In this document: one piece after another, positions 8,246-32,171 of the stretch | Layout of the letters: the number at the start of each line of letters is the position of its first letter | Numbering within the stretch: the stretch's first letter is position 1 | IMG/VR virus record: IMGVR_UViG_3300046804_001768 | Coordinates: 1-58,980 of that record | DNA length: 58,980 bases | Strand: one strand, 5' to 3' | Source of the DNA: a virus | Taxonomy: Duplodnaviria > Caudoviricetes | The notes under the pieces: generated by a model | What the model saw: only the letters and a program-made list of their open reading frames with translations | Database searches by the model: none | Told to the model about the DNA's origin: nothing | Position numbers and translations under genes: made by a program

Positions 8246-8274
8246 AATTTAAAATATAGTTTATTATTTGTCAA
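8246..8274 (-). promoter_or_regulatory. Sigma70-like promoter for the 73-aa ORF and helicase
   Basis: Minus strand reads TTGACA-17 bp-TAAATT. Confidence 0.55.
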
Positions 8275-8657
8275 GGGGTATATGACGATGGACAAATAAT
8301 CGTCGTACCCGTGCATGGAACGGGAAGTGGAATACAAACAATACTATATCCCGTTGGTGGGGTCAATGAAGGACATGCGATGTATCCAGATGGACAATCA
8401 TAATTTGCTTGACCACGGGAACCACTTGGACCTAGTGATCCTGTTGGTCCTTGTACGGTACCGACACATCCCGTAGCATCAGCTCCCCGTGACCCACTAG
8501 GTCCAATGTTACCTACCGTTGCTGCATAGAATGTAGATTGTGCAAGTACACCCGATGATGCGGTAAAACTTGAGGTAACGGATTGTTGAGCAATTGAACT
8601 GGTTAGAATAGACCCAGAGTTCGCACCAGAAATATTAAATGGAAAATAAAATGACAT
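8271..8657 (-). CDS. Mini collagen-like protein with Cys-rich C-terminus
   Basis: MSFYFPF start, GPS/GPT triplets, Cys-rich tail. Confidence 0.7.
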   Translation of the reverse strand: MSFYFPFNISGANSGSILTSSIAQQSVTSSFTASSGVLAQSTFYAATVGNIGPSGSRGADATGCVGTVQGPTGSLGPSGSRGQANYDCPSGYIACPSLTPPTGYSIVCIPLPVPCTGTTIICPSSYTP

Positions 8658-8660
8658 ATG

Positions 8661-9056
8661 TTATGCGCAGTTCGAGTTAGTGCCACCACATGCAATATAA
8701 TCTACACACGATAAATTTCCGACACAGTTGTTATCGTATGTATATAAATCTACACCCACACAATATGTGTCAAACGGAGTACAGCACGTTGCGGTTGTTA
8801 AACTCCCCGTATAACTTCCATATCCCCGAGGACCAGTTGGACCCGTTGGACCCGTTACTCCTTGGGGACCGGTGACCGTTTGGTTTGAACCGGCTGGACC
8901 TTGTGGACCTTGATATGCGATATCAGCTGATAATGCAAGAGATGCACTAGGAATAGGTCTGGCTGGATTGAATAGAAATGATGCGGATACTGCAAGACTT
9001 GCACTTTCCAAATATGATACTAAGTTTGCTGCTCCACCGTGCGGATAAAATCTCAT
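8661..9056 (-). CDS. Mini collagen-like protein with Cys-rich C-terminus
   Basis: MRFYPHG start, GPQ/GPT triplets, Cys-rich tail. Confidence 0.7.
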   Translation of the reverse strand: MRFYPHGGAANLVSYLESASLAVSASFLFNPARPIPSASLALSADIAYQGPQGPAGSNQTVTGPQGVTGPTGPTGPRGYGSYTGSLTTATCCTPFDTYCVGVDLYTYDNNCVGNLSCVDYIACGGTNSNCA

Positions 9057-9059
9057 ACA

Positions 9060-9302
9060 TTATGCTCCAGGTCTACCGATTTCACCAATCGGTCCTTGAC
9101 TTCCAGATGGTCCTTGTGGACCTTGACTGCCTGATTGTTGAACACAAACCCCAGACGGACCTTGTGACCCACTTGGTCCTTGAACTGCATATGAAGCAGA
9201 CATAGCCGTGATATAATGTTGGGTATCATTTGTATATGCGGCGAATGATGCGGTAGCTGGAAAATACGTTTGTGACCCAGACCCAAATGGATAGTATCTC
9301 AT
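9060..9302 (-). CDS. Mini collagen-like protein
   Basis: MRYYPFG start and GPS/GSQ/GPQ triplets; its N-terminus is paralogous to the two neighbours. Confidence 0.7.
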   Translation of the reverse strand: MRYYPFGSGSQTYFPATASFAAYTNDTQHYITAMSASYAVQGPSGSQGPSGVCVQQSGSQGPQGPSGSQGPIGEIGRPGA

Positions 9303-9303
9303 A

Positions 9304-10074: not shown

Positions 10075-10100
10075 GTGGTTTTCCTATAGAATGGTACCAC

Positions 10101-10108
10101 TATAAATA
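10101..10108 (-). promoter_or_regulatory. Putative late promoter motif TATTTATA
   Basis: About 27 bp upstream of the 9304-10074 gene. Confidence 0.6.
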
Positions 10109-10135
10109 TCTAATCTACCTAATAATATACAAATT

Positions 10136-10723
10136 TTACCGATAATGGTCACCACCAAGCCACAATACGAACGACCGACGAACCCCTTGGGTTACAGGGG
10201 TAACTCTATGCATCATATAAGACGGGAAAATAACTACATTTCCACGGCCTCTAGGAGCTATATCTGCGGAGTCACCACCTTTCCAAATCTCTAAGTCTCC
10301 ACCTTTATAATCATCGGTATCCGATAATTGTACGGTAATAGACACTTTTCGAATGGATAGTCCGCCTGGTCCTATATCTTGATGCCACCCATAGTGACCA
10401 GCAGCAGAAGCATGGTATTCTGTATACTGAATCATTTCCGGTGCCGAATATAATTCAAAATTCCACAATATGTCATTTGCTTCTACCGCCATATTGAGTA
10501 ACTTGGTGTATAACCAGTCCCATTTATCTACTTGTGGTATCCATTTAATTGACGATGACCGAATCGATTTATCGTTTCCCGCTGTCGTTGCTTCGTGAAA
10601 CGGTAATTCTGCTACGTCATTATAAATTTTGTTAAGTTCTTCGCTTGAGAATCCTTGATTAAACCAATAATAATTCTGAGGGTCTGGTACGTGTTTTCTT
10701 GGAAATACATAATGTTTTTGCAT
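10136..10723 (-). CDS. 2OG-Fe(II) oxygenase (prolyl-hydroxylase/PKHD-like)
   Basis: WHQD (HxD), RKVSITVQLS, YKGGDL, FPSYMMHRVTPV and RRSFVLW. Confidence 0.9.
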   Translation of the reverse strand: MQKHYVFPRKHVPDPQNYYWFNQGFSSEELNKIYNDVAELPFHEATTAGNDKSIRSSSIKWIPQVDKWDWLYTKLLNMAVEANDILWNFELYSAPEMIQYTEYHASAAGHYGWHQDIGPGGLSIRKVSITVQLSDTDDYKGGDLEIWKGGDSADIAPRGRGNVVIFPSYMMHRVTPVTQGVRRSFVLWLGGDHYR

Positions 10724-10745
10724 ACTACTCTCCTATTCAAATTTA

Positions 10746-13700
10746 TTACCACGTTTTCACGGTTCTGTCTAATAAAGAATACCCATCTGCTTGTCTACTA
10801 TATACCTTGTTGGTAGTATATCTCAATTGCGGATGGTGACAGAAGATATGGTTGAACCACAGGTCACCCACATCCCATTCACAATCTTGAATCCGTGCGG
10901 TCCACCAATTTTTATGACGATTTGCTACTAGATAACAATGAGCAAGGTCTTGGTGGTGTGCTGTTTTACTGAATAATCCATCGACGGTATCTTTTGCTCC
11001 CGAGGGGTTGTTAGCGAAAGAAATATGATATACATTGTCTCGTTCAGAAATAAAACATGCTTTGTGTACGATATTTACGAATTCTTCTACCCCAACACTC
11101 AGATAGGCGTCTGCCTCAAAAATGAGTGTATAATCGTAATTAATATCATCCATACTTGCAACCGCATTTCTATGAGCGAGATAACATCCGTAATGTCTTC
11201 CTGTTATCTTCCCCAATCCCTTGTTATTTTGAAATTCTCCCGGCGTACTATCAATATCATCCGGTCGTCTGCACATTTCTTTTGGTGGTAATCCTTCATA
11301 AACTTCGTTGACGATTGGTTGATAGTCCATCCCATACTTTTGTAATTGCTTAATCGATTCTGCACTTACAATTTCTCGTAAATCATCTGGACGAGTCAAC
11401 ATATGTTTGATTTGGATACGTGGCTTTCTTCTGATGAATGAGTACCCCTTTCTCTCAAACTGTCCGTAGAAAAACTCATCTGCGGCTCGGGTGACCCCTT
11501 CAAATACGGTATAATCATCACCACTAATAATACCACCAGCCTTTACCTTGTTATACCATGTGAGTAAGTCATCCATCAATGCGTCATACGAATGTCCTGC
11601 GTCAATCATAATAAAATCAATACTATTATTAGCGAATTGATTTGCAGCATTTCGTGAGGTGTCCTTAATCAAATTAAATGTTCTATGATTATTTGACTTG
11701 ACCGTATTCTTGATAAACTCAGGAAAGATGTCCCCGCCATATCCACTTACGACTTCTTGATGTGACTGTTCATCGTCGGTTCCTTTCCACGTATCAATGG
11801 TAGTAAACTGTATCGGTTTCTTTGAGTCCGTAATTCTCCGTGCCATATGGTTAGTTGATTTTCCTAACCATGCCCCAATCTCAACAAAAGTTTCTCCACC
11901 AACAGCGGAGTCCACTACGTCATTATATAATTCCTCATAGGAAAACCACCCAGGAATATCGGAGTCGGTCTTATTGAAAAACTTTTCCAATTCGTCGATT
12001 ACCGTTTGTCCCGTGATATTTTTTGAACATTCATAGTGTCGAGGAGTATTCTTGTGGTCGGGGCACCAATGCCAGTCTCCAGCATCCAATCGTACTCTGT
12101 TAAAACATCCACTACAGCTTCCCTTTGGAGCAGTGATACGGATGCACTCCTGCATTTCTGATATTGGGTCGGAGAACCCACTGATAATCATTGTTGGAAC
12201 ATTTAATGCCCAACTTACCCAACTCAATCCACTTCCTAATCCAATAAACAATACGGACTTCTTCAATTCTTCCATTACACTTTCTAGTGAAGATGCGGGA
12301 TGATGTTCTATCCCCTTCGGATGAGAATTGCCCATATATCCATCGTGTTCGTTTGACAATAACTTTACGGTATATCCCTTGGACTTCAGATAATCTACAA
12401 CTTCCTGCCACCCCGTAGGATTGTTCCAGTATTTAGCCTGGGTGGTAGAATGGAATCCAATAGTGACCAAATTAGAATCTTTTTGTACTTGTGGTTGCTT
12501 GACCAAAGGACGTATTTCTCTATAGGGTAATCCTAAGATATCCGACGAAATCTGTTGTAACGGTTTTACCAACGGATTTGAAGGATGTAAATTGTAATCT
12601 AACTGATTATGTTCTGTATAGAACAATCCGATGCGATACAATGCCGCTAATTCATGTACCACTTCCGATGGTTCTACGAATTGAATTTCTGGATATTGTT
12701 CAGTGAATAACTTATTAAAGAACGTCGAGCAGATAAGTGTACAGTTATGCTTTTTTCTAAATTCTTCGGCGTATGGAATCCACGCCAACGTGTCTCCCAA
12801 CGACTTTGATTCTAGACTTATGTATACTCGTTGCCATGCCAGATTCAAATCATGCGTGTACGTGTACGATGAATTGATATCTTGTATCTCGACTCTCCAA
12901 TCTACGAAATATTTCTTAGATGGTTTTACCCAACTATTATTGTTTACTGTCGTTTCATATACGACTTCGTTGGTAGACTTATCGATACACTTAATATTGT
13001 ATTGTGTTACCGGACCACCAACGATTTCCACAAATAATCCGTCTACATTATGAATTTTAACCACAGGCGTTCCTACCCTTGGGGTTTTGACAGTTTTCTT
13101 GTAGTGTTTGATTAATTGTTCTTTCATAGTTGCCGACCTATCTGCTTCGTAAATAGTGAGAAATTCTTTTGCTTGATTACTCCAACTCAACTGTTCTGCT
13201 TGTTGTCGTGCAGTCGTGCTATATTCATCATAGTTACTAATAATACGTTCAATACCGGCGGTGACCTCATCAACGTCCCGAGTAACAATAATCATCCCAT
13301 TTAATGAATTATTGGGTTCAAACGTTCCTACTACGGGTAACCCACATGCCATTGCTTCAGTTAATGTCAAGTTTGGGTGACCCGCTTCAAGTTCCGAAGG
13401 ATGTAGGAATATTGTATGCGTGTGATATGCCTCTAACAGTTCTTCTTCTGACAAATCATATCGAATCGTCAACTTATCATACTCTACTGGATTATTATCA
13501 AAATATAATTGATTGTTTTTCGGACCAGCGACCGTAATCGGTAATCCTAGTCGTTTTGCTGCTGCGATAGCAATACCAAACCCCTTTCTATCTTCTGATG
13601 GATTGTGTTGGTATCCGTTGTTCGCAACACACAATAACCGATGTTCTGTCGGTTTAACTGTCGGTGGTGCAAAGTAATCTGTATTTACTCCATACGGCGA

Positions 13701-14063
13701 GTATTCTGGAACTCCTTCGAAATAGTCCACCAAATACTTTCCACCAACAAATGTTCTGATAGAGTTTTTCATCGCAGTCATATTTGTCTTGAAGATATGA
13801 TAATCTTTTCCATACAAATATGCATGGTGGTCACTCATTGTAAAATAATACGGGATACCTCGTTCGTGTGCTAGATTTGCTAAATTCCCAACGTGAATGT
13901 GTACGATATCCTCGTCACCCGTGAGTTCGTCTAAATAGACAATCTTAGAATCGTGACCTTCTTTGAGAAAATTACAATGCAGTTCCCATATTAATTTTTC
14001 AATAGCTCCCCATCCTTTTGGTGGAATCGGGAGGATGCCGGGTGTGACTTGGGCAATCTTCAT
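10746..14063 (-). CDS. Multidomain glycosyltransferase: GT4 + AAH/TibC-like O-heptosyltransferase + class I methyltransferase + C-terminal GT-like domain
   Basis: GT4: IPPKGWGAIE and EAMACGLPVV. Heptosyltransferase-like: SKSLGDTLAWIPY, AKYWNNPTGWQEVVDYL, FIGLGSGLSW and CSGCFN..WCP..C. Methyltransferase: VEIGAWLGKS, IDAGHSY and GDDY. C-terminal domain: HYGCYLAH and LIFEADA. Confidence 0.85.
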   Translation of the reverse strand: MKIAQVTPGILPIPPKGWGAIEKLIWELHCNFLKEGHDSKIVYLDELTGDEDIVHIHVGNLANLAHERGIPYYFTMSDHHAYLYGKDYHIFKTNMTAMKNSIRTFVGGKYLVDYFEGVPEYSPYGVNTDYFAPPTVKPTEHRLLCVANNGYQHNPSEDRKGFGIAIAAAKRLGLPITVAGPKNNQLYFDNNPVEYDKLTIRYDLSEEELLEAYHTHTIFLHPSELEAGHPNLTLTEAMACGLPVVGTFEPNNSLNGMIIVTRDVDEVTAGIERIISNYDEYSTTARQQAEQLSWSNQAKEFLTIYEADRSATMKEQLIKHYKKTVKTPRVGTPVVKIHNVDGLFVEIVGGPVTQYNIKCIDKSTNEVVYETTVNNNSWVKPSKKYFVDWRVEIQDINSSYTYTHDLNLAWQRVYISLESKSLGDTLAWIPYAEEFRKKHNCTLICSTFFNKLFTEQYPEIQFVEPSEVVHELAALYRIGLFYTEHNQLDYNLHPSNPLVKPLQQISSDILGLPYREIRPLVKQPQVQKDSNLVTIGFHSTTQAKYWNNPTGWQEVVDYLKSKGYTVKLLSNEHDGYMGNSHPKGIEHHPASSLESVMEELKKSVLFIGLGSGLSWVSWALNVPTMIISGFSDPISEMQECIRITAPKGSCSGCFNRVRLDAGDWHWCPDHKNTPRHYECSKNITGQTVIDELEKFFNKTDSDIPGWFSYEELYNDVVDSAVGGETFVEIGAWLGKSTNHMARRITDSKKPIQFTTIDTWKGTDDEQSHQEVVSGYGGDIFPEFIKNTVKSNNHRTFNLIKDTSRNAANQFANNSIDFIMIDAGHSYDALMDDLLTWYNKVKAGGIISGDDYTVFEGVTRAADEFFYGQFERKGYSFIRRKPRIQIKHMLTRPDDLREIVSAESIKQLQKYGMDYQPIVNEVYEGLPPKEMCRRPDDIDSTPGEFQNNKGLGKITGRHYGCYLAHRNAVASMDDINYDYTLIFEADAYLSVGVEEFVNIVHKACFISERDNVYHISFANNPSGAKDTVDGLFSKTAHHQDLAHCYLVANRHKNWWTARIQDCEWDVGDLWFNHIFCHHPQLRYTTNKVYSRQADGYSLLDRTVKTW

Positions 14064-16030
14064 ACACGTACCTTTGTAGCGTATAAGACTTCACTTACAT
14101 CTACTAACTTACCTGGGTTTGGATTGATTTCTTCCACGATATACCCCAACGTGCTTAATCGGTTCTTGAGCTTATCGAACCGTTGCTTATAACCTTCTTC
14201 AAAGAAATGACATTCAACCATCAAATGGTTGATATGTGAGAATACTTCATCCTTTGCTTGGAACAGAATTTCATATTCTGCTCCTTCGATGTCAATTTTG
14301 ATTAAATCGATTGTGCCGTAGGTGTTTACCAATTGTTCTAATGTAATCGTGTCTACGGTTAATGTGTTATCACTTTGTAATCCCGCACCGTGCCCCACGA
14401 TACGGTCGGGGGATAGGGTGGTACTGACTACTGGGTTTTCGGTAAACTGATAGAAGGTAATCGGGTCTTCCGAATAGTGTAATGCCTTTGGAATAATCGT
14501 TACGTTCTTAGTCCGCTTGAAGTTGCGTTGTAAGTCCTTTAAAGCAATACTATCACATTCAACCGCAACAACTTCTTGGGCATATCCTCTACTTAACATA
14601 TATTCAGTAAATACCCCGGCGTTCGCTCCTACATCCACCACCAACCCGTATTGATGGTCAGTGCATCTACTAAACTTTCCTTGTACAAAGAATTCTACAT
14701 AATTTAACCGATATGGTATAAAATTACTTAATGATACTGTGGGAACATTAACGAATTTATGAAAGAACGGCTGTTCGAATATCTGCTCTTCCGTGTCTTT
14801 TCTGTAAATACAGAACTTAATCCCTGTGAAATGCGGGTCATGTTCGTATGAGTGATGATGTTTACTAATCGGCAACATCCAGTAATTTACCCCAGCAACA
14901 ATAGAATCTAAATTACTTGCCCACAGTACGGCATCTGACTTATATTCTTTAATGCTGACAATAACCGGGAAGTCTACTTGCTTCTGGCATGAATAATATA
15001 CTTTTTGTTCTTCTAAATTCCACTCTACTGAAAATCCGTAATCCATTTTGAAACTCCGTGTATTCGGTATATTAAGTACATCTAAAATCTTTCCTGCGTT
15101 TTCCTCTATATTATCATTCAAGTAATTGATGGTGGGATATTTGTTGAAATAATTGAGATATACTGGAAGGTTATATATCAATGATGGTGCTTTCCAACTC
15201 AATGCTTCACGAATGACCAACGGCATCGTTTCGTGGTCCGTATTGTGTCCCCGTGATGTAAAGAGAAATAAGTCTGCTGCTTCGTAAAACTTATCTACAT
15301 CATCTCGTTCATTCCACCACTTACAATTGGGTGGAAAATGTTTCATTAATGGACCCCAATAATACTCAAAGTTTTCCGCTTGGTTCCCCAAGAAATGAAA
15401 CTGGATTGGGTAGTCTTTCAACATCTTTGCATATTCAATCACTTCCGCTTGATTCTTCCGTGGGGTGAATAGTCCGACATTGATTACGTGCTTAAGATTG
15501 GGGTCTAATCCCAACTCTTGTAATGCTTCTTCCCGTGTCTTTGTTCTGATTTTATTTTCAATCGGATATTCTACAACCGCACACGGAACTCCCAAGGGCC
15601 GATATCGGTTCTCTTGGTATTTACTGACCATTAAAAACTTGTCAGGAAGGTATATCTTTTGTGTCGTATCAAAACTTGAGTCGTGGGAAGTTTCGATTAA
15701 TTTATACGACCGGTCTATATGATATAATTTTTGTGCAACATCATGTGACATAAACAGTTCAGGAATTTCCTGAATATGAATAATGTCTGGTTGCAGTTGT
15801 TCGATGACTGTAAATAATTGATGTTTATCTTCTGGAAGCGTAATCAGTCTGTCACCTAATAGGTTAACTACCCGATTACGTTGGATGACCAGCACTCCTC
15901 CCGTAACATTTTCCCATTCAATGCAGTATACATCGAAGTCATCAACTAATGACTCCATTTGCTTGAACAAATATTGTGGAAGGCCGCCCGTTGAGAGATG
16001 GGGAGCAATAAATAATATTTTTTCTTTCAT
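14060..16030 (-). CDS. GT4 glycosyltransferase fused to an FkbM-family methyltransferase
   Basis: PHLSTGGLPQY, NVGLFTPRKNQ and ETMPLVIREA; C-terminal VDVGANAGVF and IKIDIEGAEY. Confidence 0.85.
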   Translation of the reverse strand: MKEKILFIAPHLSTGGLPQYLFKQMESLVDDFDVYCIEWENVTGGVLVIQRNRVVNLLGDRLITLPEDKHQLFTVIEQLQPDIIHIQEIPELFMSHDVAQKLYHIDRSYKLIETSHDSSFDTTQKIYLPDKFLMVSKYQENRYRPLGVPCAVVEYPIENKIRTKTREEALQELGLDPNLKHVINVGLFTPRKNQAEVIEYAKMLKDYPIQFHFLGNQAENFEYYWGPLMKHFPPNCKWWNERDDVDKFYEAADLFLFTSRGHNTDHETMPLVIREALSWKAPSLIYNLPVYLNYFNKYPTINYLNDNIEENAGKILDVLNIPNTRSFKMDYGFSVEWNLEEQKVYYSCQKQVDFPVIVSIKEYKSDAVLWASNLDSIVAGVNYWMLPISKHHHSYEHDPHFTGIKFCIYRKDTEEQIFEQPFFHKFVNVPTVSLSNFIPYRLNYVEFFVQGKFSRCTDHQYGLVVDVGANAGVFTEYMLSRGYAQEVVAVECDSIALKDLQRNFKRTKNVTIIPKALHYSEDPITFYQFTENPVVSTTLSPDRIVGHGAGLQSDNTLTVDTITLEQLVNTYGTIDLIKIDIEGAEYEILFQAKDEVFSHINHLMVECHFFEEGYKQRFDKLKNRLSTLGYIVEEINPNPGKLVDVSEVLYATKVRV

Positions 16031-16053
16031 ATGTAACCCTTATATTATACTAT

Positions 16054-16675: not shown

Positions 16676-16987
16676 TTAAATACAGCTTGCTGGGAAATTA
16701 CAATCGTTTACACCGTAACAGAAACACCCATTGTTGTAACACGGAGCTGAGCATGTGTTTGAAAGACATTGACATCCCACCGTAGTTGTAGTCGCACTAT
16801 GATTATATCCGTACCATTCACTCATACTGGCTGGGTTTCCGGACGAAGGATAAAATGGTGAATAGGTATTAATTGCAACATACCCTCCATTTTCTGCTGT
16901 ATCCAGAGAAAACGGTGCTTGACTTGTTACCGTCAATTCTGTACGTATTTGGGACATCGCAATTTGTCCAGACGAAGGTAATACCAT
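16676..16987 (-). CDS. Putative fibre-tip/adhesin-like small protein with Cys-rich C-terminus
   Basis: The N-terminal motif MVLPSSGQIAMSQIRTEL...SMSEWYGY is typical of genes following tail fibres; the tail is Cys-rich. Confidence 0.55.
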   Translation of the reverse strand: MVLPSSGQIAMSQIRTELTVTSQAPFSLDTAENGGYVAINTYSPFYPSSGNPASMSEWYGYNHSATTTTVGCQCLSNTCSAPCYNNGCFCYGVNDCNFPASCI

Positions 16988-21259: not shown

Positions 21260-24200
21260 TTATGAATTGTGTTTGAGTGTATCGATTTCTGCTTTGAGTT
21301 CTTTGATTGCTTCGACTAAGAGTGGGATAATTGCTCGGTCACGAAGACTGAGTTTTCCATCTTCGTTTTCTCTTACAATCGTTGGAAGAACTTCACGAAC
21401 TTCTTGTGCGATAAATCCGATATCATCCGAAATATTGGTCATCTTATAACTGTCCGTATCTTCCTTCCACTTGAATGTGACACCACGAAGTTTTTGCACA
21501 GTGTCTAATGCATTGGTAAGCTGATGGATATCATGCTTGTATCGAATATCTGACGGTGTTCCGTAGGCTACTACGTCAGCGGATACAGTAAGCGTACCTG
21601 CTCCAGTGATTGCAAAAGTTCTTGTACCACTAGCATTTAATCCACTGTATGTAAAATATGCATTATTACTGACTTGTGCACCAAATCCGTTATACCCCGT
21701 TACATATGAAGAAACTGCAGCGGAGTCAATCGCTGAACCGACATAAAATGTTCCTACATATGTGATTGCTGCACGTTGGGCATTTGACCCTGCATTATAC
21801 GTGTAGAATGAAATATCACCAGATTCTGCTGCGGCTGTACTTGAAACAATACGTGAATAAATTCCTGCATAGTTAATCTTTGTACCTGATGCATTTTGTT
21901 GTGCAAATACGATACCCGAAAGATTGGATGCGGTACTCTGTGTACGATATACGGATAGTATGTCCGATGTACCGGTGTTTGCTACCGTTAGTCGTTCTAC
22001 AGGACTCGTCGTGCCGATGCCAACGTTGCCGGAGCTATTACCGTATAACCACGTTACAGTTCCACCGTAACCAGTATTATTAAAGTTTAATCCATTTGCA
22101 TTAACTTCAAATTGCTGACTACTTGCACGCGTTCTTACCGTCCAATTGGTACCCGTGCCGGCGGTATGACCCATGTAAAGATAGTTAGACCCTACTATAC
22201 CCACATCACCGTTCGTATCCAACTTGTAATATGGACTTGTCTGTGCGATACCGACGTTGCCGCCAGAGGTAATAACTATATTGTTTGTTGTTCCTCCATT
22301 GACACGGAACACAAACCCGCAACCCGTTGCGGCCATAAAATACATTCCATCATTAGCATTTGACGCCGCAAGTATTCGGTTGCCTCCATCGCTTGTTGAA
22401 TTAAAACCAACGACTTTATACGGGCTTCCGTATGTAGAATCGTCACCTAAAATAATACCGTTTGCGTTGGTGTTGCCGTTTACATCTAGCCTATATCCCG
22501 GACTCGTCGTGCCGATGCCGACGTTGCCGGAAGTGTTGATACTTACGTGTGTTGTCCACCCAAAAGTTCCTGTACCTGCGGCGGCATATGCAAAATCCAT
22601 TCTATTATTAATACCAAATGTAATTCTCCATGACGTATCGTTGGCGATTTTGGTATACGCACTATTAAACGCATTATAGTTATATCCTATTTCTGGATAA
22701 CCACTGGCATACGTTCCCACGAAAAATCTACCAGGTAACAATACTGCTCGACCGTCAAATGTAGTTGGGTCTGCATATATCATATATGAGTTTGCAGAAC
22801 CTGCTATTTCTAATTTACCATTACTTGGACTCGTCGTGCCAATGCCGACGTTACCCGAACCTTTAATTCTCATCAATTCACTACGCGAAGATGCACCGGT
22901 TCCCGCAAAGAACACATGGTCATCACCGGTTGTATAAGTGGAATATACTAATGTGGCTGATTCAACACCAAACCCATAAAATTGATAATTGTTATTTGCT
23001 CCTTCATACAATACTATTTTTCTAGTAGCTGTGGAAGTAGCAAATTGTAACGGAGCATTTGGACTCGTCGTACCGATGCCGACGTTACCTGAACTGTTGA
23101 TGTATACATAAGTCGTACTACCATTTCTATTACGGAAATAGTGTTGTGAGTTATAGTAATAATTGCTTGAGTCGGTAGTATTACCTAAGTAAATTGACCC
23201 AGTGCCGGATGGTTCGTATATTTGATTATAGTTTCCTGATTTTACTGCGAACGGGAATCCCGATAATCCAATAGTTCCACTAACATCTAATGTATAGGAT
23301 GGACTCGTCGTGCCGATGCCGACGTTGCCAGCGCTGGTAATACGCATTCTGGTGGTATTACTTGTACCTAAATCTAAATATCCTGCACTCAATTGATAGA
23401 GTTGAGTCCCATCGGTTAATCCACGAAGTTCGGTTGCAAATACTGCCGAATCTAATCGTAATGTTGATGTAGCACTTGACTGTTGGATTTCCAATCCACT
23501 TCCTGCTGTGAACGCCGGTGTGGCACCAATACCTACACTTTGTCCACTCGCAGGAGATAATACGATGTGACCACTTCCCGTTTCATTTGCGATGGTCAAG
23601 TTATCACTAGTTGCTCCACCATATCCAATATATGCCTTACGTCCGGCTCCCAATCCATCTGGATAAAATCCTGCGTATACGTGGTCAGTACCAATCAAAT
23701 TCAATACTTGTGCATTACTTGAAACGGATAATGTGCTTCCATTAAACGTTAGTCCAGATTCCCCTTGTAGTGTGTTAGTTGTACCCGTTGCGGTTACCAC
23801 ATAGTTGTCAACGTTACTATTGATGGTGACGGACGCGGAAGTACCGGAAGTACCAGAACTACCATTTGCCCCAGCTGTTCCTGAGGTACCACTGCTACCA
23901 TTTGCCCCAGAGGTACCTGAGCTACCGTTTGCTCCCGAGGTTCCTGAACTTCCGCTAGTTCCAGATGAACCCGATGTTCCACTAGTACCTTGTGCGCCAG
24001 ATGTACCTGAGGAACCAGATGTTCCAGACGATCCTGACGTTCCTGACGAACCAGAAGAACCGGATGTTCCGGAATTACCTGAGGTTCCAGACGAACCACT
24101 ACTTCCAGAACTACCTGATGACCCCGATGTACCACTTTCACCAGAAGTTCCACTTGAGCCGGAAGAACCCGACGATCCTGATGTTCCAGAACTACCTGAC

Positions 24201-24751
24201 GTGCCACTTACTCCACTCGTCCCGGAAGTACCAGTTGTACCACTTGTTCCAGAGCTTCCCGATGTACCATTAACTCCAGACGTGCCACTAGTACCCGATG
24301 GTGTTAATGCAAATCCAGCTGTAGTTGCATAACTTGCACTTGCAATAATACCAAAAAACGACCCACTAAATGAACCGGTGACATTTTCGGTTGCATTTAC
24401 GAGGGCCGTAACAACGATGATTGATTCTGTGGGTGGTGCGGAAACGAAAACAACAGTACTACCCGAAATCGTGTAGTCTGTGGATGCATTAAAACTTAAA
24501 CCACCAACTGTAACAAATAGGGAATTAATATTATAGTTGGCATTTAAATTGAAATTCGTTTGTACCCCACTACCAGTAAAGTAGTAGGTATCAACGTCAA
24601 CGGTAGAATTTGCGGTTGGAAGATTGGTAAGTTGACTACCATCACCTTTGAAATATGATGCTGTAACCGACCCGTTGATACTCGCTGAACCAGAAATTGT
24701 TGTACTGCCAGAAACTATCAGTCCCTTTCTGGCTACGAATTCATTTGCCAT
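21260..24751 (-). CDS. Tail fibre with GTS/GSS repeats, GNVGIGTTSP modules and C-terminal peptidase S74 chaperone
   Basis: MANEFVARKGL N-terminus, six GNVGI(G/A)xTSP repeats, and SDIRYK...GFIAQEV...LLVEAIKEL. Confidence 0.85.
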   Translation of the reverse strand: MANEFVARKGLIVSGSTTISGSASINGSVTASYFKGDGSQLTNLPTANSTVDVDTYYFTGSGVQTNFNLNANYNINSLFVTVGGLSFNASTDYTISGSTVVFVSAPPTESIIVVTALVNATENVTGSFSGSFFGIIASASYATTAGFALTPSGTSGTSGVNGTSGSSGTSGTTGTSGTSGVSGTSGSSGTSGSSGSSGSSGTSGESGTSGSSGSSGSSGSSGTSGNSGTSGSSGSSGTSGSSGTSGSSGTSGAQGTSGTSGSSGTSGSSGTSGANGSSGTSGANGSSGTSGTAGANGSSGTSGTSASVTINSNVDNYVVTATGTTNTLQGESGLTFNGSTLSVSSNAQVLNLIGTDHVYAGFYPDGLGAGRKAYIGYGGATSDNLTIANETGSGHIVLSPASGQSVGIGATPAFTAGSGLEIQQSSATSTLRLDSAVFATELRGLTDGTQLYQLSAGYLDLGTSNTTRMRITSAGNVGIGTTSPSYTLDVSGTIGLSGFPFAVKSGNYNQIYEPSGTGSIYLGNTTDSSNYYYNSQHYFRNRNGSTTYVYINSSGNVGIGTTSPNAPLQFATSTATRKIVLYEGANNNYQFYGFGVESATLVYSTYTTGDDHVFFAGTGASSRSELMRIKGSGNVGIGTTSPSNGKLEIAGSANSYMIYADPTTFDGRAVLLPGRFFVGTYASGYPEIGYNYNAFNSAYTKIANDTSWRITFGINNRMDFAYAAAGTGTFGWTTHVSINTSGNVGIGTTSPGYRLDVNGNTNANGIILGDDSTYGSPYKVVGFNSTSDGGNRILAASNANDGMYFMAATGCGFVFRVNGGTTNNIVITSGGNVGIAQTSPYYKLDTNGDVGIVGSNYLYMGHTAGTGTNWTVRTRASSQQFEVNANGLNFNNTGYGGTVTWLYGNSSGNVGIGTTSPVERLTVANTGTSDILSVYRTQSTASNLSGIVFAQQNASGTKINYAGIYSRIVSSTAAAESGDISFYTYNAGSNAQRAAITYVGTFYVGSAIDSAAVSSYVTGYNGFGAQVSNNAYFTYSGLNASGTRTFAITGAGTLTVSADVVAYGTPSDIRYKHDIHQLTNALDTVQKLRGVTFKWKEDTDSYKMTNISDDIGFIAQEVREVLPTIVRENEDGKLSLRDRAIIPLLVEAIKELKAEIDTLKHNS
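22002..23329 (-). repeat. Interspersed 29-bp GC-rich direct repeats, consensus GGCAACGTCGGCATCGGCACGACGAGTCC (minus strand)
   Basis: Copies at 22002-22030, 22500-22528, 22827-22855, 23061-23089 and 23301-23329 (0-2 mismatches), plus a degenerate copy at 22233-22261. The sequences between them are unique and in frame. Confidence 0.9.
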
Positions 24752-24813: not shown

Positions 24814-27114
24814 TTAGAGAGCGCGAACCGCTGTCTTTACAATCCAGTTGTCTGATGCGACGGTTGCTTTCAACCGTGCTGTTGCTGAAAGAATATCTAC
24901 GACAAACACCACATCTGTTGTGTTCCCCAAGTCATTTGTTGAGGTGTCGGTGAATTCTACATTAGAGGTACCTGCTTCCCACACTGCCATCACGGTACCT
25001 GCACGATAACTTGATCCCTTCTTAACTACATAATCGAAGAATGCTGCGTCATAACTACCAGTTTGTACAGTCGCAACTACTTCAGTACCTGTGTCTACAT
25101 CGGCGTTACTACCAGAAGTAAAGAGTACTCCGTGGATAACTGCTCCACCATTTAGTACAAGTTGGTCTGCGGTAGTAGCACCTTGTGAGGTAATGTTAGC
25201 AAGACCAAATGAATATGCGGAACCAAGATTGAGTGGGACACTATTAAAGGTGATTGCACTTGCGGTTACTTGACCACCTACAACTGAGAAGTTTGCGCTG
25301 TTGAATGCTGCGACACCCTTTGTAGTAGTCGTTGCGTCACTACCACTAATCGTGATAGTTTGACCACTGACTGTTGCGGTAAGACCGTTAGTACCATCAA
25401 CAGTTAATGCTTGTGTCTTAAGAGATACAGTACCTGTACCACCATCTGAGCCGGTGATATTAAGGTTTGTGACGATACCAGTAAGGTTACTACCATCACC
25501 AGAGAATGCAGATGCGGTTACTGAACCTGTGACGTATACATTACCTTCTGCGTGTAAAGTGGTTCCTGCAACACGAAGAGGTGAGACTGCGGGTCGTGTA
25601 TCGATGTGGTCATCACCAACTGCTACAGGAATACGACCGGTGATTAATCCAACTTCATCGCCAAGCGAACCAGTGTTTTGTGGACCAGCAATGATAACTG
25701 CGGAATTGTATGCTACGTCATCTGCTTCATAAATCCAACGATTGTTTAAACTATCCCAGAGGAGTGATCCTGTACCATAGGTCGAACCAGAGTCAACTAC
25801 TGAGATTCCAGAGAAACGTACCAAATCATCATCATTGAGGATGATGCGACTTACACCAACAGTATATTGAGAAGATGTAACATATTGGGTAGACATACTG
25901 ACTGCGGTAAGCAATCCGTCAACATTTAAACTACCAGAAATATATACATCCTTTGCAATTCCGACACCGCCTTGTACAATTAATGCACCATCTGTGTAAT
26001 TGGTACTGTTGGTGGTATTACTAATAGTTTGAATACCTGTAAAGGTATTTGAACCTGTAGTTGCAATTGTTGCGATACCCGTAGTGTTACGAACATCAAC
26101 TTGACCAGATGATGATACGGTTCCTGTTGGTAGTAATGCGGTAACTTGTGCACTACTTGATACAACTCCGTTGGTTGAAAGAAGTGAACCAGTAATACCT
26201 TCGGTTACCTTCAATGAACCCGTAACTTGTACACCACCGTCATTGACGATAAACTTTTGTGTCCAAGTAGTTCCGTTAAATGATGCTACGTGGAAGTTTG
26301 CATTTGCATTATTTCTGTTGTCGTATACGAATTCTGCTGAACCAATTTGTTGTGAAGAACCGGCAGCGTTACCACCCCACATTTGATAGTATGCACCTAA
26401 GATATTACTACCATCAAAGAACCCAAACAGTGTATTGGCGGTGTTACTTGGTATACGAATTTGTCCGTTTGACCCAAGTGCAATATTTCCGCTTATAATT
26501 TGGTCGGCGGTGAATGTATTTGAACCCGTGGTTGCGATGGTTGCAATACCAGTAGTTTGGCGAACATCGGTTTGGATAGAACTACTGAATACTCCATCGG
26601 TATTAAGTTTTGACTTAACACCGCCAGTAAAGTGTGCAGATGATGTATCTAGTGTTAAAGTGCGGGTAGCGGTAATATCACCACCGCCACTTAAACCGCT
26701 TCCTGCGGTTATGGATACTGTACTGTGGTCAATGTGTTGGTTTGCTACATAATTGGTTGTAGCGTTGTGGTCAACTTGAGATGAAGCGGAAACTGTACCG
26801 GTTGGGATACCGATAGTTACAGTATTATTAGTAACAACCGTAGTAACCCCGTTAGACCCCAATAAGCTTAGGGAATCAGTAAGGAGACTGACGACATCGG
26901 TACCTGTTGACCCGGTAATACGAAGTTCAGAAACAAGCCCCGTAAGTTGTGACCCATCACCCTTGAATGAGCCGGTAAACGAACCAGTTGCACCTGCCGA
27001 CGCGGTGACCGGTCCACTAAAGATACTATCACCTGATACGCCGAGCGAACCAGTTATCTTTGCACCGTTATTAAGGACTATTAGACCTTTACGGGCAATA
27101 AATTCATTTGCCAT
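24814..27114 (-). CDS. Ser/Thr/Gly-rich virion fibre/decoration protein
   Basis: Its MANEFIARKGL N-terminus is shared with 21260-24751, and its C-terminal FFDYVVK..RAGTVMAVW..FTDTST.DLG domain is shared with 27161-27760. Confidence 0.75.
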   Translation of the reverse strand: MANEFIARKGLIVLNNGAKITGSLGVSGDSIFSGPVTASAGATGSFTGSFKGDGSQLTGLVSELRITGSTGTDVVSLLTDSLSLLGSNGVTTVVTNNTVTIGIPTGTVSASSQVDHNATTNYVANQHIDHSTVSITAGSGLSGGGDITATRTLTLDTSSAHFTGGVKSKLNTDGVFSSSIQTDVRQTTGIATIATTGSNTFTADQIISGNIALGSNGQIRIPSNTANTLFGFFDGSNILGAYYQMWGGNAAGSSQQIGSAEFVYDNRNNANANFHVASFNGTTWTQKFIVNDGGVQVTGSLKVTEGITGSLLSTNGVVSSSAQVTALLPTGTVSSSGQVDVRNTTGIATIATTGSNTFTGIQTISNTTNSTNYTDGALIVQGGVGIAKDVYISGSLNVDGLLTAVSMSTQYVTSSQYTVGVSRIILNDDDLVRFSGISVVDSGSTYGTGSLLWDSLNNRWIYEADDVAYNSAVIIAGPQNTGSLGDEVGLITGRIPVAVGDDHIDTRPAVSPLRVAGTTLHAEGNVYVTGSVTASAFSGDGSNLTGIVTNLNITGSDGGTGTVSLKTQALTVDGTNGLTATVSGQTITISGSDATTTTKGVAAFNSANFSVVGGQVTASAITFNSVPLNLGSAYSFGLANITSQGATTADQLVLNGGAVIHGVLFTSGSNADVDTGTEVVATVQTGSYDAAFFDYVVKKGSSYRAGTVMAVWEAGTSNVEFTDTSTNDLGNTTDVVFVVDILSATARLKATVASDNWIVKTAVRAL

Positions 27115-27140
27115 ACATTTCTCCCAACGGGGTTATTGTA

Positions 27141-27148
27141 TATAAATA
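27141..27148 (-). promoter_or_regulatory. Putative late promoter motif TATTTATA
   Basis: About 27 bp upstream of the 766-aa fibre gene. Confidence 0.6.
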
Positions 27149-27160
27149 TTAAATACTTTT

Positions 27161-27760: not shown

Positions 27761-27763
27761 CTT

Positions 27764-28618: not shown

Positions 28619-28632
28619 ATTATATTTTACTC

Positions 28633-29241
28633 TTACCAAGATTTTGTTGACGTTCCTATGAATTGAAATATTGGTGCTGCATTAGCCCACGATACCCACG
28701 TATCATATGGCGCAGCACAATCGTACCAAGAGTTCGGATATTGTGTTGTTCCTCCAGTACGGTTAGTCGATGAAACCGACCCAACATATGTTGTTACTGA
28801 GTTTGCGGTAGTTGGTGCTTTTCTTACAAAATAACGTCTAGTTCCTTGTACTAAAGTTGGACTATTTGCTAAACTTGTATATGTACCCTTTGCTGCGGTT
28901 GAAGTTAGTACCGTGAATGTTCCATTGGTATTAAACAATCTAGCGGAAAACCCAATAATATATTCTCCTGCCGGGGATGTCACAGACCCCGATGGAAGCA
29001 AGTGTGCACAGGTACCCGTCCATGCAGCCGAAGATTCATTTGCTTGTGCTTCGGTCATGCCACGAGTAACAACCCCGGTTACTGTAGCCTTTACGTTTGC
29101 ATATTCTGCTGATGTCACTTCTACCCAGTTTCCGACAGTAGCCGCATCGTATGCCGACCCAGACGTACTTAATGCTGCTCGAATTGCATCAGCTACCGCG
29201 GGTTGAGTTATTCTAAAACCACTTGAAAACGTTATACTCAT
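28633..29241 (-). CDS. Hypothetical protein, probably virion-associated
   Basis: 202-aa Thr/Ala-rich ORF within the fibre cluster. Confidence 0.55.
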   Translation of the reverse strand: MSITFSSGFRITQPAVADAIRAALSTSGSAYDAATVGNWVEVTSAEYANVKATVTGVVTRGMTEAQANESSAAWTGTCAHLLPSGSVTSPAGEYIIGFSARLFNTNGTFTVLTSTAAKGTYTSLANSPTLVQGTRRYFVRKAPTTANSVTTYVGSVSSTNRTGGTTQYPNSWYDCAAPYDTWVSWANAAPIFQFIGTSTKSW

Positions 29242-29243
29242 AG

Positions 29244-32171
29244 TTATACCAAACTTGCACTACGATATTGTGTTCCAGTATACACATAAATAAATGAACC
29301 ACTAAAATACATAGACCCTGTTTGTGGTACTGCTGGGGCGCCCGTTGGTAATACGAAATTACCTGATACAATAAGTGAACCAGTAACTTCCGCAGAACCA
29401 TTATTTTGTACATACAAATTACTACCACTGGTTAAGTAAAGCGACGAACTATTCGTTGTTAATGAAGAACTTACTAATGCAACGCTACTGACTGTCAATG
29501 ACCCCGTAATAGTTTGATTACCATTGAATTGGTTAGACCCCGTAGTTGCTAAAATATTATAATTAGTTACTTGTACAGAACTACTAACAGTTCCAGCAGG
29601 TACTGTTGCGTTTTGTGCATAACTTGCGGTCAATGCGTATGATGCGCTTGTAATACTACCACTAAATGAACCTGTGATACCTTGAGTTACATTCAAAGAC
29701 CCAGTAATCGTTTGGTTACCATTAAATACATTTGACCCCGTTGTTGCAAATGAGCCTGTATTCACCAAGGAAGATGTTCCCGATGTACCAGAAGAACCCG
29801 AATTTCCAGAACTTCCTGATGTTCCTGATGACCCAACGGTTCCACTACTTCCAGATGTTCCCGAAGAACCAGAACTACCAGAGGTTCCTGAGGTTCCTGT
29901 ACTTCCTGATGAACCAGATGTACCTGAACTACCTGATGTTCCTGATGACCCCGTAGTACCACTTGAACCAGATGTTCCTGAACTTCCTGAACTGCCGCTT
30001 GTACCAGAACTTCCCGATGTTCCATTTGCACCAGAGATACCAGAAGAACCAGATGTTCCGTTTTCACCTGATGTTCCGCTGGTTCCTGAACTACCGCTTT
30101 GACCAGAGGTACCGGAAGAGCCTGAAGTACCCGTTTGGCCGGAAGTTCCGCTCGTGCCATTTTGCCCCGAAGTACCACTGGTGCCGGATGAACCAGCACC
30201 ACCACTTAATACATAACTTGCGGTTACTGCGGTTTGTGCAACACTTGCGGTACCAAGCAATGAACCAGTGATTCCTTCAACAACATTCAATGAGCCACTA
30301 AATATTGCGGGTCCAATATTTGTTAATGTAGATGAACCAGATACAATTAATGACCCAGTAACAGTTACCTTTCCAATAAAGGCACTAGAACCTGTGGTGG
30401 TTAACGACCCACTAAATACCATTGTATCTGCGGTTGTCAGTAACGACCCCGTAATGGTTTGATTACCACTAAGTACTAAGGATGTTCCGTCAAAAGTAAG
30501 ATTTGTTTCCGCCACGGCGGCGTTAGATGTTCCATCTGATGTTAGTATTCTATTATCTGCTGCATTAGATACGGTATTGAATCCCGTTCCACTAGTTCCT
30601 GATGTACCAGAGGAACCTCTAGTGCCTGATGTTCCAGAACTTCCACTCGTTCCTGATGTACCAGAGGAACCAGAAGTTCCTGATGTACCTGAGCTACCTG
30701 ATGTTCCGTTGGTACCCGAGGTGCCTGCTGTTCCTGATGTACCTGAGCTACCTGATGTTCCGTTGGTACCCGAGGTGCCTGCTGTTCCCGATGTACCAGA
30801 CCCACCACCTCCGCCACCATTGAGAGCATAACTTGCGGTTACGGCATACGATGAACTAATTGATGTTTGAACTGGAAAATAAAATACTTGAGCTGAACTA
30901 GAGACAAGTCCTTCCGGTTTATCTAATAAAACATTCCAAGAATTATTTGCTATGTAACTTGCGGTTAATGCATAGCTTGCACTAGTTATATAACTTAATC
31001 CACCGGACGGTGTAGGGATAATATAACTACCACTACCAGATTCATATACTCCGGCAAAGATAACATCAATACCATCTGCTACACTAGCAGTACCATATAA
31101 TGACCCCGTAAATCCTGTAGCGACAACTGGAACATTAACTGATAATTCTGTTGAAGTTAGTTCCGCTGTTGCGGTACCGTCTGCATTCCATACCCACTTA
31201 TTTTCATTTCCGTCATAATATGCTCTAATCTTCGATTGACCGTCAGATATAACAATAAAATTACTACCAGTGCGGAAATCATATCCGTTTTGGTTACCGT
31301 TGAATCGACCAAGATAGGTATTATAACTACCAGTGACATAACGACCAGCTTGTGCACCAAGCATCGTATTACTGTCACCGTGGGCATATTCAAATGATTG
31401 TACACCGATTGAGGTGTTGTAACTACCCGTATCATCATGAAGTTGTGCAAACGCACCCACTGCCGTATTTCCAACTCCAGTACGGTTGTAGTACATCGTA
31501 GCAGGACCGATTGCTACGTTTTGACTACCCGTGGTGTTTCTATTTAAGGAAAATGCACCAACACCTACATTACTACTACCACTATAACTAGAACTGAGTG
31601 CGTGATACCCAATTGCCGTATTATCAGTACCTACGGTGTTTGAACGTAATGTTTCGTGACCAATAGCGGTATTGTAAACACCGGTCGTCAACCGTTCTAA
31701 GGCATCATTACCAAATACGATATTATTTTCAGCGCTAATAGCTCCATTAGGACCAGCACCAATTCGTACTCCACGAACGTAAATGTCTGACCCGTATACA
31801 GTAAGTGATGGACCACTAGTAGAGCTGGTGATGAGTAATGAACCGGTGATAACTGCGGACCCACTGAATGGGAATCCTGCACCCTGACCAGCATTAATTG
31901 CATACGAAGCCGTAGTTGCGTATGAGGATGAAATTGATGTAGCAGCTTGATTGACATATGACGCAGAAATAGCAGTTAGTGCTAATTGCGCAATAGTATT
32001 AAACGACCCCGTGCGTAATGTTTTAATAACAGCAGGGGTAACGTTTACATTGTAATCGGAATTCTTTTCAACTTTGACAACTAGATTTGGTACATCTAGA
32101 GTTAAGTTTGCATCATCAGCTTCCCGAATTACAACCCGAATATTTGGAAGACCGGTACTCGGTGTCGTCAT
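29244..32171 (-). CDS. Fibre/decoration protein with YadA-head-like NTAIG repeats and two GTS/GSS tracts
   Basis: NTAIGHETL, NTAIGYHAL and NVGVGAFSL beta-roll repeats, repeated ASYA.TASY motifs, and long Gly-X-Ser tracts. Confidence 0.75.
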   Translation of the reverse strand: MTTPSTGLPNIRVVIREADDANLTLDVPNLVVKVEKNSDYNVNVTPAVIKTLRTGSFNTIAQLALTAISASYVNQAATSISSSYATTASYAINAGQGAGFPFSGSAVITGSLLITSSTSGPSLTVYGSDIYVRGVRIGAGPNGAISAENNIVFGNDALERLTTGVYNTAIGHETLRSNTVGTDNTAIGYHALSSSYSGSSNVGVGAFSLNRNTTGSQNVAIGPATMYYNRTGVGNTAVGAFAQLHDDTGSYNTSIGVQSFEYAHGDSNTMLGAQAGRYVTGSYNTYLGRFNGNQNGYDFRTGSNFIVISDGQSKIRAYYDGNENKWVWNADGTATAELTSTELSVNVPVVATGFTGSLYGTASVADGIDVIFAGVYESGSGSYIIPTPSGGLSYITSASYALTASYIANNSWNVLLDKPEGLVSSSAQVFYFPVQTSISSSYAVTASYALNGGGGGGSGTSGTAGTSGTNGTSGSSGTSGTAGTSGTNGTSGSSGTSGTSGSSGTSGTSGSSGTSGTRGSSGTSGTSGTGFNTVSNAADNRILTSDGTSNAAVAETNLTFDGTSLVLSGNQTITGSLLTTADTMVFSGSLTTTGSSAFIGKVTVTGSLIVSGSSTLTNIGPAIFSGSLNVVEGITGSLLGTASVAQTAVTASYVLSGGAGSSGTSGTSGQNGTSGTSGQTGTSGSSGTSGQSGSSGTSGTSGENGTSGSSGISGANGTSGSSGTSGSSGSSGTSGSSGTTGSSGTSGSSGTSGSSGSTGTSGTSGSSGSSGTSGSSGTVGSSGTSGSSGNSGSSGTSGTSSLVNTGSFATTGSNVFNGNQTITGSLNVTQGITGSFSGSITSASYALTASYAQNATVPAGTVSSSVQVTNYNILATTGSNQFNGNQTITGSLTVSSVALVSSSLTTNSSSLYLTSGSNLYVQNNGSAEVTGSLIVSGNFVLPTGAPAVPQTGSMYFSGSFIYVYTGTQYRSASLV
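30676..30788. repeat. 54-bp perfect tandem duplication in a GTS tract
   Basis: gttcctgatgtacctgagctacctgatgttccgttggtacccgaggtgcctgct occurs at 30676 and 30730. Confidence 0.85.

Follow-up and report, generated by a model that had tools for sequence, protein, structure and literature searches.

The virus record IMGVR_UViG_3300046804_001768 of IMG/VR, which we analysed over its entire 58,980 bases (the window; completeness estimate ~30%), is a genome fragment from a large, uncultured phage of the T4-like kind, and its structural block holds a pair of multidomain enzymes in which glycosyltransferase (GT) and methyltransferase domains are joined to a relative of TibC, a protein-glycosylating enzyme of E. 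coli. We consider it probable that the pair forms a phage-encoded, cytoplasmic cassette for protein O-glycosylation, the likeliest acceptors being the Gly-Ser/Thr-Ser/Thr (G-S/T-S/T) tracts of three of the phage's own fibres. A first-pass annotation of this DNA had proposed that the enzymes O-glycosylate the phage's collagen-like fibres, and four independent lines of comparative sequence evidence now back that proposal, namely an enrichment of TibC-like genes in viral records with S/T-rich tracts, a corresponding gene cluster in another phage (G034), bacterial relatives that adjoin repeat genes, and a split in the enzyme tree.

The enzyme pair and the neighbouring fibres

All long open reading frames (ORFs) of the window lie on the minus strand. 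The enzymes, the domains of the larger one, a neighbouring oxygenase and the candidate acceptors are as follows (aa, amino acids; the Pfam Collagen cut-off, PF01391, is 27.2 bits).

14060-16030, minus: 656-aa enzyme, GT4 plus FkbM methyltransferase (Pfam, NCBIfam)
10746-14063, minus: 1105-aa four-domain enzyme, GT4 plus TibC-like plus Methyltransf_24/TylF-like plus GT25-like (Pfam, NCBIfam, PDB)
13134-14063, minus: GT4 (GT-B) domain of the 1105-aa enzyme, residues ~1-310 (PF13692 35.4 bits; PF00534 31.8 bits, cut-off 26.4)
11982-13013, minus: TibC/AAH-like iron-finger glycosyltransferase domain, residues 351-694 (TIGR04414, PDB 4rap)
11469-11933, minus: S-adenosylmethionine-dependent methyltransferase domain, Methyltransf_24/TylF-like, residues 711-865 (PF13578 68.4 bits, PF05711 27.2 bits)
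10749-11456, minus: GT-A fold, GT25-like domain, residues 870-1105 (fold search; sub-threshold PF01755)
10136-10723, minus: 2-oxoglutarate (2OG)-Fe(II) oxygenase, PKHD-type (PF13640, 2OG-FeII_Oxy_3, 54.3 bits)
17405-20794, minus: 1129-aa tail fibre, candidate acceptor, with a G-S/T-S/T then G-P/A-T tract (19340-19996) and a C-terminal Peptidase_S74 domain (Collagen 96.8, S74 33.9 bits)
21260-24751, minus: 1163-aa tail fibre, candidate acceptor, with a G-S/T-S/T tract (23837-24295), a repeated 'GNVGIGTTSP' region and Peptidase_S74 (Collagen 75.6, S74 59.6 bits)
29244-32171, minus: 975-aa fibre, candidate acceptor, with two G-S/T-S/T tracts (30591-30797, 29772-30194) (Collagen 88.3 bits)

The two enzyme genes lie between the fibre genes and the baseplate genes and overlap by four bases, the stop of the 656-aa gene falling within the start of the 1105-aa gene. 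Pfam, NCBIfam and PDB matches confirm that two large enzyme fusions sit inside the structural module, as the first-pass annotation had it, and profile searches recovered its GT4, FkbM, TIGR04414 and Methyltransf_24 assignments. In the 656-aa enzyme the GT4 part scores 48.4 bits against Glycos_transf_1 (PF00534, cut-off 26.4) and the FkbM part 59.9 bits against PF05050 (cut-off 22.7) and 88.6 bits against TIGR01444 (cut-off 37.7), and the pair together holds four glycosyltransferase and two methyltransferase domains. Homologues P0001-P0005 of our list are 62-99% identical across the full 1105-aa length, and metagenome proteins of ~695 aa with the GT4+TibC fusion make up the majority of the 120 homologues listed. 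This fusion is abundant, with 2054 of 7999 scored candidates at E <= 0.001, many of them ~695 aa long and 56-70% identical, and the TibC-like domain was matched by 716 representative clusters at E <= 1e-30, in varied architectures.

The TibC-like domain scores 276.1 bits against TIGR04414 as protein and 279.2 bits on DNA (cut-off 200), and matches the TibC structure 4rap with E 2.3e-56. In TibC, Asp-110 is the base, Thr-226 and Lys-230 contact the beta-phosphate, Trp-305 contacts heptose O4, and Cys-339, Cys-342, Cys-358 and Cys-370 hold the iron of an iron finger (PMC4358343; this and the other PMC articles are cited from excerpts). A phmmer alignment to 4rap places the phage enzyme's equivalents of these essential residues at D424, T540, K544, W615 and C650/C653/C667/C679. 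The positions of Asp-110, Lys-230, Trp-305 and the four cysteines do not vary in any of 19 aligned sequences, that of Thr-226 being Thr or Ser, and the iron-finger cysteines are invariant in all 89 rows compared, iron binding itself being predicted. The thumb-tip residues Phe-265/Val-266 align with Y576/M577, both hydrophobic, at a column that is variable across the branch. Judged by its catalytic residues and cysteines, the TibC-like enzyme looks active.

The C-terminal domain was placed by fold search alone. Its PF01755 (GT25) score of 19.2 bits is under the cut-off of 24, and searches of PDB by sequence, with a single sequence or a profile, returned nothing; of the 30 matches in its ESM Atlas neighbourhood, 23 fall in the PF01755 family set, and several of its 187 shorter homologues are labelled GR25 family glycosyltransferase by JGI. 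An AlphaFold2 model (pLDDT 76) has human COLGALT1 as its top Foldseek match (9evj_A, E 8.7e-8, TMq 0.62), ranks 1-7 being COLGALT1 or an untitled glycosyltransferase at 10-13% identity, and mimivirus R655 and PBCV-1 A64R (A64R-D1, 2p73) are also among the best matches. All 16 sequences compared share a DxD-like E-A-D, at residues 114-116 of the model. In its predicted fold, the domain is of GT-A type and closest to GT25.

The three fibres carry long Gly-X-Y tracts whose Y is mainly Ser or Thr, as had been read from the sequence at first pass, with Y = S/T in 77-91%. The 1129-aa fibre has 73 triplets (Y = S/T 77%), the 1163-aa fibre 51 (88%) and the 975-aa fibre 23 and 47 (78% and 91%). The X position, to which the first-pass annotation had drawn no attention, is also largely S/T (52-100%), proline is missing from most tracts, and no Lys was seen in the window's G-X-Y tracts on reading the translations. 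The DNA pattern (GGN WSN WSN)x7 has 25 matches in the window, all within the three fibre genes, and none in each of 100 dinucleotide-preserving shuffles.

Association of the TibC-like branch with G-S/T-S/T repeats

Across phages, TibC-like genes and S/T-repeat fibres co-occur more often than in controls, as the first-pass annotation would have it. Among the matches listed, 16 of 44 viral records picked solely for (G-S/T-S/T)7 carry a TIGR04414 match (14 over the cut-off), compared with 2 of 46 records picked solely for (G-P-X)7 as a Pro-collagen control and 2 of 30 terminase relatives, the latter being a weak within-clade control of mainly short fragments in which 2 of 30 records are at least 90% complete. 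The enrichment over the two controls gave Fisher p = 1.4e-4 and 4.9e-3, respectively, and a further co-occurrence test gave p = 3.8e-5, in tests that treat as independent records which are not. Both TibC-positive records of the G-P-X control also contain S/T tracts, and the enrichment is seen for S/T tracts only, not for G-P-X collagen. In the reverse direction, the S/T pattern was found in 20 of 35 TibC-positive records (one record per group), including all 4 with a completeness of 90% or more, and in 2 of 30 terminase relatives, both near-duplicate fragments; near-complete TibC-negative relatives had it in 0 of 2, and a reversed-pattern control gave 0 everywhere.

Viral loci were found with an alignment query, a single-protein search having yielded 10, and 298 held up out of 315 candidate stretches from viral contigs. 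We fetched 90 viral loci and assigned the TibC-like gene in 89, which form 39 groups at 80% identity. The GT4 domain of the 1105-aa type is present in 36 of the 39 groups. In 35 groups the TibC-like gene has a homologue of the 656-aa enzyme's GT4 part no more than 10 kb away, and in 27 it has FkbM at such a distance. Where collagen ORFs of at least 20 triplets stand within 10 kb, 25 of 26 have Y = S/T >= 0.63. In three annotated loci (L070, L016 and L009), GT2, methyltransferase, aminotransferase and acetyltransferase genes vary around the cassette. The middle of the 656-aa enzyme (14663-15070, ~125 residues between GT4 and FkbM) is kept in 26 of the 39 groups; it has no family match, and BLASTP of residues 321-456 against the TibC-type N-terminal region found no similarity.

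The same elements stand together in G034, a record of 66,344 bases that is complete, bears inverted terminal repeats and has no match to Gp23. Side by side it encodes a 1105-aa collagen+S74 fibre, a DUF7936 protein, a GT4+TibC-like protein and one of 454 aa that contains a class-I methyltransferase motif. The order of collagen+S74 fibre then DUF7936 is common to the window phage and G034 (DUF7936 at L460 9132-9476). Since the same cluster is found in a Gp23-negative phage, the comparison indicates that the cassette moves between phage lineages. An isolate, Microcystis phage Mel-JY01 (190 kb; L002, PP395634), has a 1226-aa FkbM+TibC-like gene, and 2.4 kb upstream of it the plus strand from 2 to ~2300 is open for at least 760 codons with ~200 G-X-Y triplets (Y = S/T 48-73%, X = S/T 71-95%). 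The deposited annotation places two minus-strand hypothetical coding sequences (1-651, 739-2298) over that frame. The collagen-like fibre gene looks unannotated, and its frame may run across the record ends.

Relatives are encoded in at least 630 stretches of species-representative bacterial genomes, of which the best 80 underlie the counts given here. Of these 80 loci, 20 have an ORF of 12 or more G-X-Y triplets no further than 10 kb away, and in 18 of the 20 Y = S/T is at least 0.67 (L508 has 0.58, and L526, at 0.15, is not S/T-rich). The six loci that we read encode repeat proteins of 132-534 aa, for example (GTS)39 or (GSS)n, directly adjoining a standalone TibC-like gene, some with signal or lipoprotein-like N-termini as read by eye. 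At L472, a Methylococcales locus with a TibC-like gene and a (GTS)39 protein, the neighbours are thyA, lgt and lpxC, which marks the pair as chromosomal and not part of a prophage. At two gammaproteobacterial loci (L483 9132-9962, L488 9060-9902) the gene for the (GSS)n lipoprotein-like protein is separated from that for the TibC-like enzyme by a DUF6502 gene, possibly a third member conserved in the bacterial system.

We labelled the bacterial loci by their content within 3 kb as repeat-linked (ST) or autotransporter-linked (AT), which gave 17 ST and 31 AT loci and no locus of both kinds; 9 had neither partner and in 19 the flanks were too short, 4 loci having been dropped for short or interrupted matches. 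As a positive control for reading the neighbour as the substrate, Pfam found an AIDA-type autotransporter, the known substrate type, directly downstream in 8 of 8 AT-labelled loci checked. A maximum-likelihood tree of 117 domains, taken as unrooted and so silent on the ancestral partner, is divided by a branch with SH-aLRT 100 into 46 rows (31 AT, 9 short, 6 none) and 71 rows (41 phage, 17 ST, 10 short, 3 none). No AT row falls among the phages and no ST row among the AT rows, and the window enzyme is on the phage/ST side. An autotransporter domain was found by Pfam in none of the 50 window proteins scanned.

Proposed fibre glycosylation and competing explanations

The closest characterised systems are TibC-TibA and Aah-AIDA-I of E. 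coli (BAHT, TIGR04414; PDB 4RAP/4RB4; PMC4358343), which share with the phage enzyme a homologous catalytic domain with the same Asp, Thr/Lys, Trp and four Cys. These enzymes are cytoplasmic and modify many Ser residues on a repetitive, fibrous surface protein that is encoded nearby. In the TibC family the neighbouring gene is the substrate, and in the present branch the neighbour encodes a G-S/T-S/T repeat protein, both in bacteria and in phages of two genome types, which is most simply explained if the TibC-like domain O-glycosylates the tracts. The window enzyme differs from TibC and Aah in falling on a separate tree branch (support 100), in having a collagen-like repeat as its partner and not an AIDA-type beta-helix autotransporter, and in being phage-encoded, fused to GT4, methyltransferase and GT25-like domains, with Val in place of Arg-286.

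For the acceptor, the order of steps, the donor and sugars, the target of methylation and the benefit, we infer the following scheme. The TibC-like GT-B domain, with its catalytic Asp424 and four-Cys iron finger, would put the first sugar on Ser/Thr hydroxyls of the repeats; the two GT4 domains and the GT25-like GT-A domain would then lengthen the glycan, and the FkbM and TylF/Methyltransf_24 domains would O-methylate its sugars. The fibres would subsequently trimerise, two of them via the C-terminal S74 chaperone, and enter the virion. That the glycan may be multi-sugar and methyl-capped, as first proposed, is suggested solely by the count of four glycosyltransferase and two methyltransferase domains. 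The likely benefit would be a stabilised or stiffened, nearly proline-free triple helix and shielding from proteases.

There are precedents for such a scheme. The peptide (Gly-Pro-Thr)10 passes from random coil to triple helix only if its Thr is galactosylated, and glycosylation can substitute for hydroxyproline as a helix stabiliser (PMC11923368). Both BclA of the Bacillus anthracis exosporium and the cuticle collagen of Riftia have G-X-Thr repeats in which Thr is O-glycosylated (PMC11923368), although different glycosyltransferases are involved, and in the present, viral system Ser/Thr occupies both X and Y. Among viruses, A064R of the chlorovirus PBCV-1 unites in one polypeptide two GT domains and a sugar O-methyltransferase domain that serve a methylated capsid glycan (PMC9614988); this is a eukaryotic virus with N-linked capsid glycans, and its system, as presented in the excerpt, has no TibC-like domain. 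Mimivirus L230 joins a GLT25D1-like glycosyltransferase to a lysyl hydroxylase acting on viral collagen-like proteins (PMC9614988). The glycosylated (GPT)10 helix and the viral precedents of A064R and L230 fit glycosylation of the fibres.

As in the case of L230 and COLGALT1, the window has a GT25-like domain beside a 2OG oxygenase and collagen-like genes. However, the route of those enzymes needs hydroxylysine, and we dropped an equivalent route here since no Lys was seen in the tracts and conservation of the cassette does not extend to the oxygenase. The best solved relatives of the oxygenase are PKHD-type hydroxylases whose substrate is not known (PDB 3dkq, E 3.1e-7). The first-pass annotation had listed it beside the enzyme fusions, but 2 of the 39 viral groups have a homologue of it no more than 10 kb from the TibC-like gene, and it is not a conserved partner.

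The first-pass annotation also named ADP-heptose as the sugar donor, which is now doubtful. In TibC, Arg-286 contacts adenine N1 and accounts for ADP specificity, and the substitution R286A impairs the enzyme (PMC4358343). The Arg-286 column, over 89 aligned domains, is Arg in 30 of 31 autotransporter-linked rows versus 22 of 58 phage/ST rows. As Arg is kept in the former and mostly relaxed in the latter, the alignment suggests that the donor need not be ADP-heptose and may differ from that of TibC. GmhA (TIGR00441) was found in 0 of 10 TibC-positive phage records, and RfaE-domain-II-like matches, present in 5 of the 10, were all below the cut-off (40-96 bits versus 181.5); heptose synthesis encoded by the phage was dropped as an explanation on these grounds. 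In G149 (the record of L006), a 143-aa nucleotidyltransferase that resembles RfaE domain II below the cut-off (229675-230067; 86 bits) has a start that overlaps the last bases of the TibC-like gene (228531-229682), and it could be a sugar-1-phosphate nucleotidyltransferase feeding the enzyme.

Several points weigh against glycosylation of the fibres. No glycan, mass shift or enzyme activity is on record for any member of the branch. The residue equivalent to Arg-286, which TibC needs for activity, is V596 in the phage enzyme, and the TibC acceptor is a folded beta-helix in a dodecamer ring, a very different shape from the fibre repeats. Only 15 of the 39 viral groups have a collagen ORF no more than 10 kb from the TibC-like gene, 15 of the 35 TibC-positive records are without a strict S/T tract (mostly fragments), and Mel-JY01 fails the strict pattern. 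Among the S/T-tract records listed, 28 of 44 are without a TibC-like gene, including 3 of 7 near-complete ones, and the records compared by Fisher tests share ancestry. Moreover, the GT4, GT9-like and GT25 families are classically those of the lipopolysaccharide (LPS) and lipooligosaccharide core.

The explanation that survives best besides a glycan-stabilised helix, although we regard it as unlikely, accepts that the tracts are glycosylated and takes them to be flexible, mucin-like spacers, with a glycan for hydration, extension or shielding and not for helix stability. This would suit the presence of Ser/Thr at both X and Y, the lack of proline in most tracts, and the bacterial repeats, which are in small proteins with signal or lipoprotein-like N-termini by eye and no trimerisation domain among the matches returned. 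It would not account for Gly at strictly every third residue through 51-73 triplets, which a spacer does not need, nor does it agree with the trimer-specific S74 chaperone on two of the fibres or with Pfam Collagen scores of 75-97 bits.

It is improbable that the cassette instead glycosylates capsid, sheath and tube, the S/T fibres being merely neighbours in the structural block. Phage glycosyltransferases do decorate virion proteins in mycobacteriophages (Freeman et al. 2023, cited in PMC12619734), where the glycans are on the C-termini of capsid and tail-tube proteins (PMC12619734), in contrast to the long fibre repeats and the TibC-family initiator that we propose here. The GT genes adjoin the sheath gene in L070 and L016 and those of terminase and portal in L009, and the low number of groups with a nearby collagen ORF also speaks for acceptors of this kind. 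However, five groups without a collagen ORF nearby (L073, L019, L012, L088 and L054) hold S/T tracts elsewhere in the same record, the closest bacterial homologues are without nearby virion proteins and yet stand beside a (GTS)n/(GSS)n protein, and the enrichment concerns S/T tracts and not G-P-X.

We give only slight credence to a role of the enzymes in remodelling host envelope glycans (LPS core, O-antigen or capsule), for instance in blocking superinfection or releasing progeny. In addition to the family memberships noted above, this would be in keeping with the JGI label 'GR25 family glycosyltransferase involved in LPS biosynthesis' on homologues of the C-terminal domain and with weak matches to LPS heptosyltransferase I and RfaC (28-29 bits). 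Those scores are a tenth of that against TIGR04414, however, and the iron-finger cysteines of the protein-modifying family are all present. The phage is lytic and T4-like and carries the genes in its late structural block, Pfam found no flippase, polymerase or membrane domain in either enzyme, and the link to S/T repeats would be left unexplained. Hypermodification of phage DNA bases, a common role of phage glycosyltransferases (PMC12619734), can practically be dismissed, as Pfam scans found no base-hydroxymethylase or related gene in the window, membership of the TibC family indicates protein acceptors, and the association evidence would again go unexplained.

Beyond fibre glycosylation in this phage, we put forward, tentatively and as something short of probable, that the distinct iron-finger branch of TibC-like enzymes is a widespread and undescribed O-glycosylation system for proline-poor G-S/T-S/T repeats, present in phages of at least two genome types and in free-living bacteria. 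Its glycan would replace hydroxyproline and permit very long proline-free fibres, and its donor would have diversified from ADP-heptose, as the relaxed adenine-reading Arg of the branch may indicate. Literature searches, judged from listings and abstracts, turned up no work that connects the TibC family with phage fibres or with repeats of the collagen type.

Other genes of the record and wider meaning

The structural block is of T4 type, with Pfam matches to terminase, Gp20 portal, prohead protease, Gp23 capsid, sheath, T4 baseplate protein and M23 peptidase, and a tail-tube match in PHROGs. The capsid protein is 54% identical to that of Flavobacterium phage immuto and 51% to that of Mel-JY01. 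The remaining features near the cassette and fibres are as follows.

6132-8030, minus: SNF2 helicase gene, interrupting the structural block
8271-9302, minus: three small ORFs (128, 131 and 80 aa), first described as 'mini-collagens', with short, interrupted G-X-Y runs
16991-17365, minus: small DUF7936 protein after the 1129-aa S74 fibre (PF25590 75.7 bits)
20864-21247, minus: small DUF7936 protein after the 1163-aa S74 fibre (PF25590 77.5 bits)
24814-27114, minus: 766-aa fibre-like protein without a collagen tract (translation; no Pfam or PHROG match)

The name 'mini-collagens' is not upheld, as one of these ORFs has 7 triplets and the Pfam Collagen score is 20 bits, under the cut-off; their PHROG tail-fibre matches run via the G-X-Y part only, and those at 8271-9056 end in Cys-rich tails. 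A 103-aa protein with a Cys-rich C-terminus (16676-16987) is encoded between the fibre block and the enzymes, and its homologues are near the TibC-like gene in 5 of the 39 viral groups. DUF7936, which may be a fibre accessory or tip protein, is near it in only 3 of the 39. The 766-aa fibre-like protein and the 1163-aa fibre have the N-terminal 'MANEF(V/I)ARKGLIV' in common. An extremely Glu/Asp-rich 414-aa protein (39961-41205), without a family match and encoded between the capsid and prohead-protease genes, is probably the scaffold. A 911-aa ORF (52584-55319) has no Pfam match at 1e-5; by eye it contains KLDG and, at its C-terminus, GRFQPFHSGH, which we take to be a ligase-like and a nucleotidyltransferase motif, respectively. 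In other loci of the viral set, the tail sheath that directly follows the GT cassette of L070 (12225-16139) is 1304 aa long, about twice the usual length, and 19% Ser/Thr, and in L016 (1-2340) the region upstream of the GT cassette holds a row of four genes for 2OG-Fe(II) oxygenases, three of the Oxy_5 and one of the Oxy_3 type.

Two simple experimental systems are at hand, the isolate Mel-JY01 and the bacterial two-gene pair in which a TibC-like enzyme accompanies a (GTS)n protein. If the fibres are glycosylated as we propose, many large aquatic phages would sugar-coat their host-recognition fibres themselves, with a bearing on stability, host range and protease resistance. The only characterised family of protein heptosyltransferases would gain a second class of substrate, collagen-like repeats beside autotransporters, and the fibres would offer a natural, testable case of glycosylation substituting for hydroxyproline in a collagen helix.

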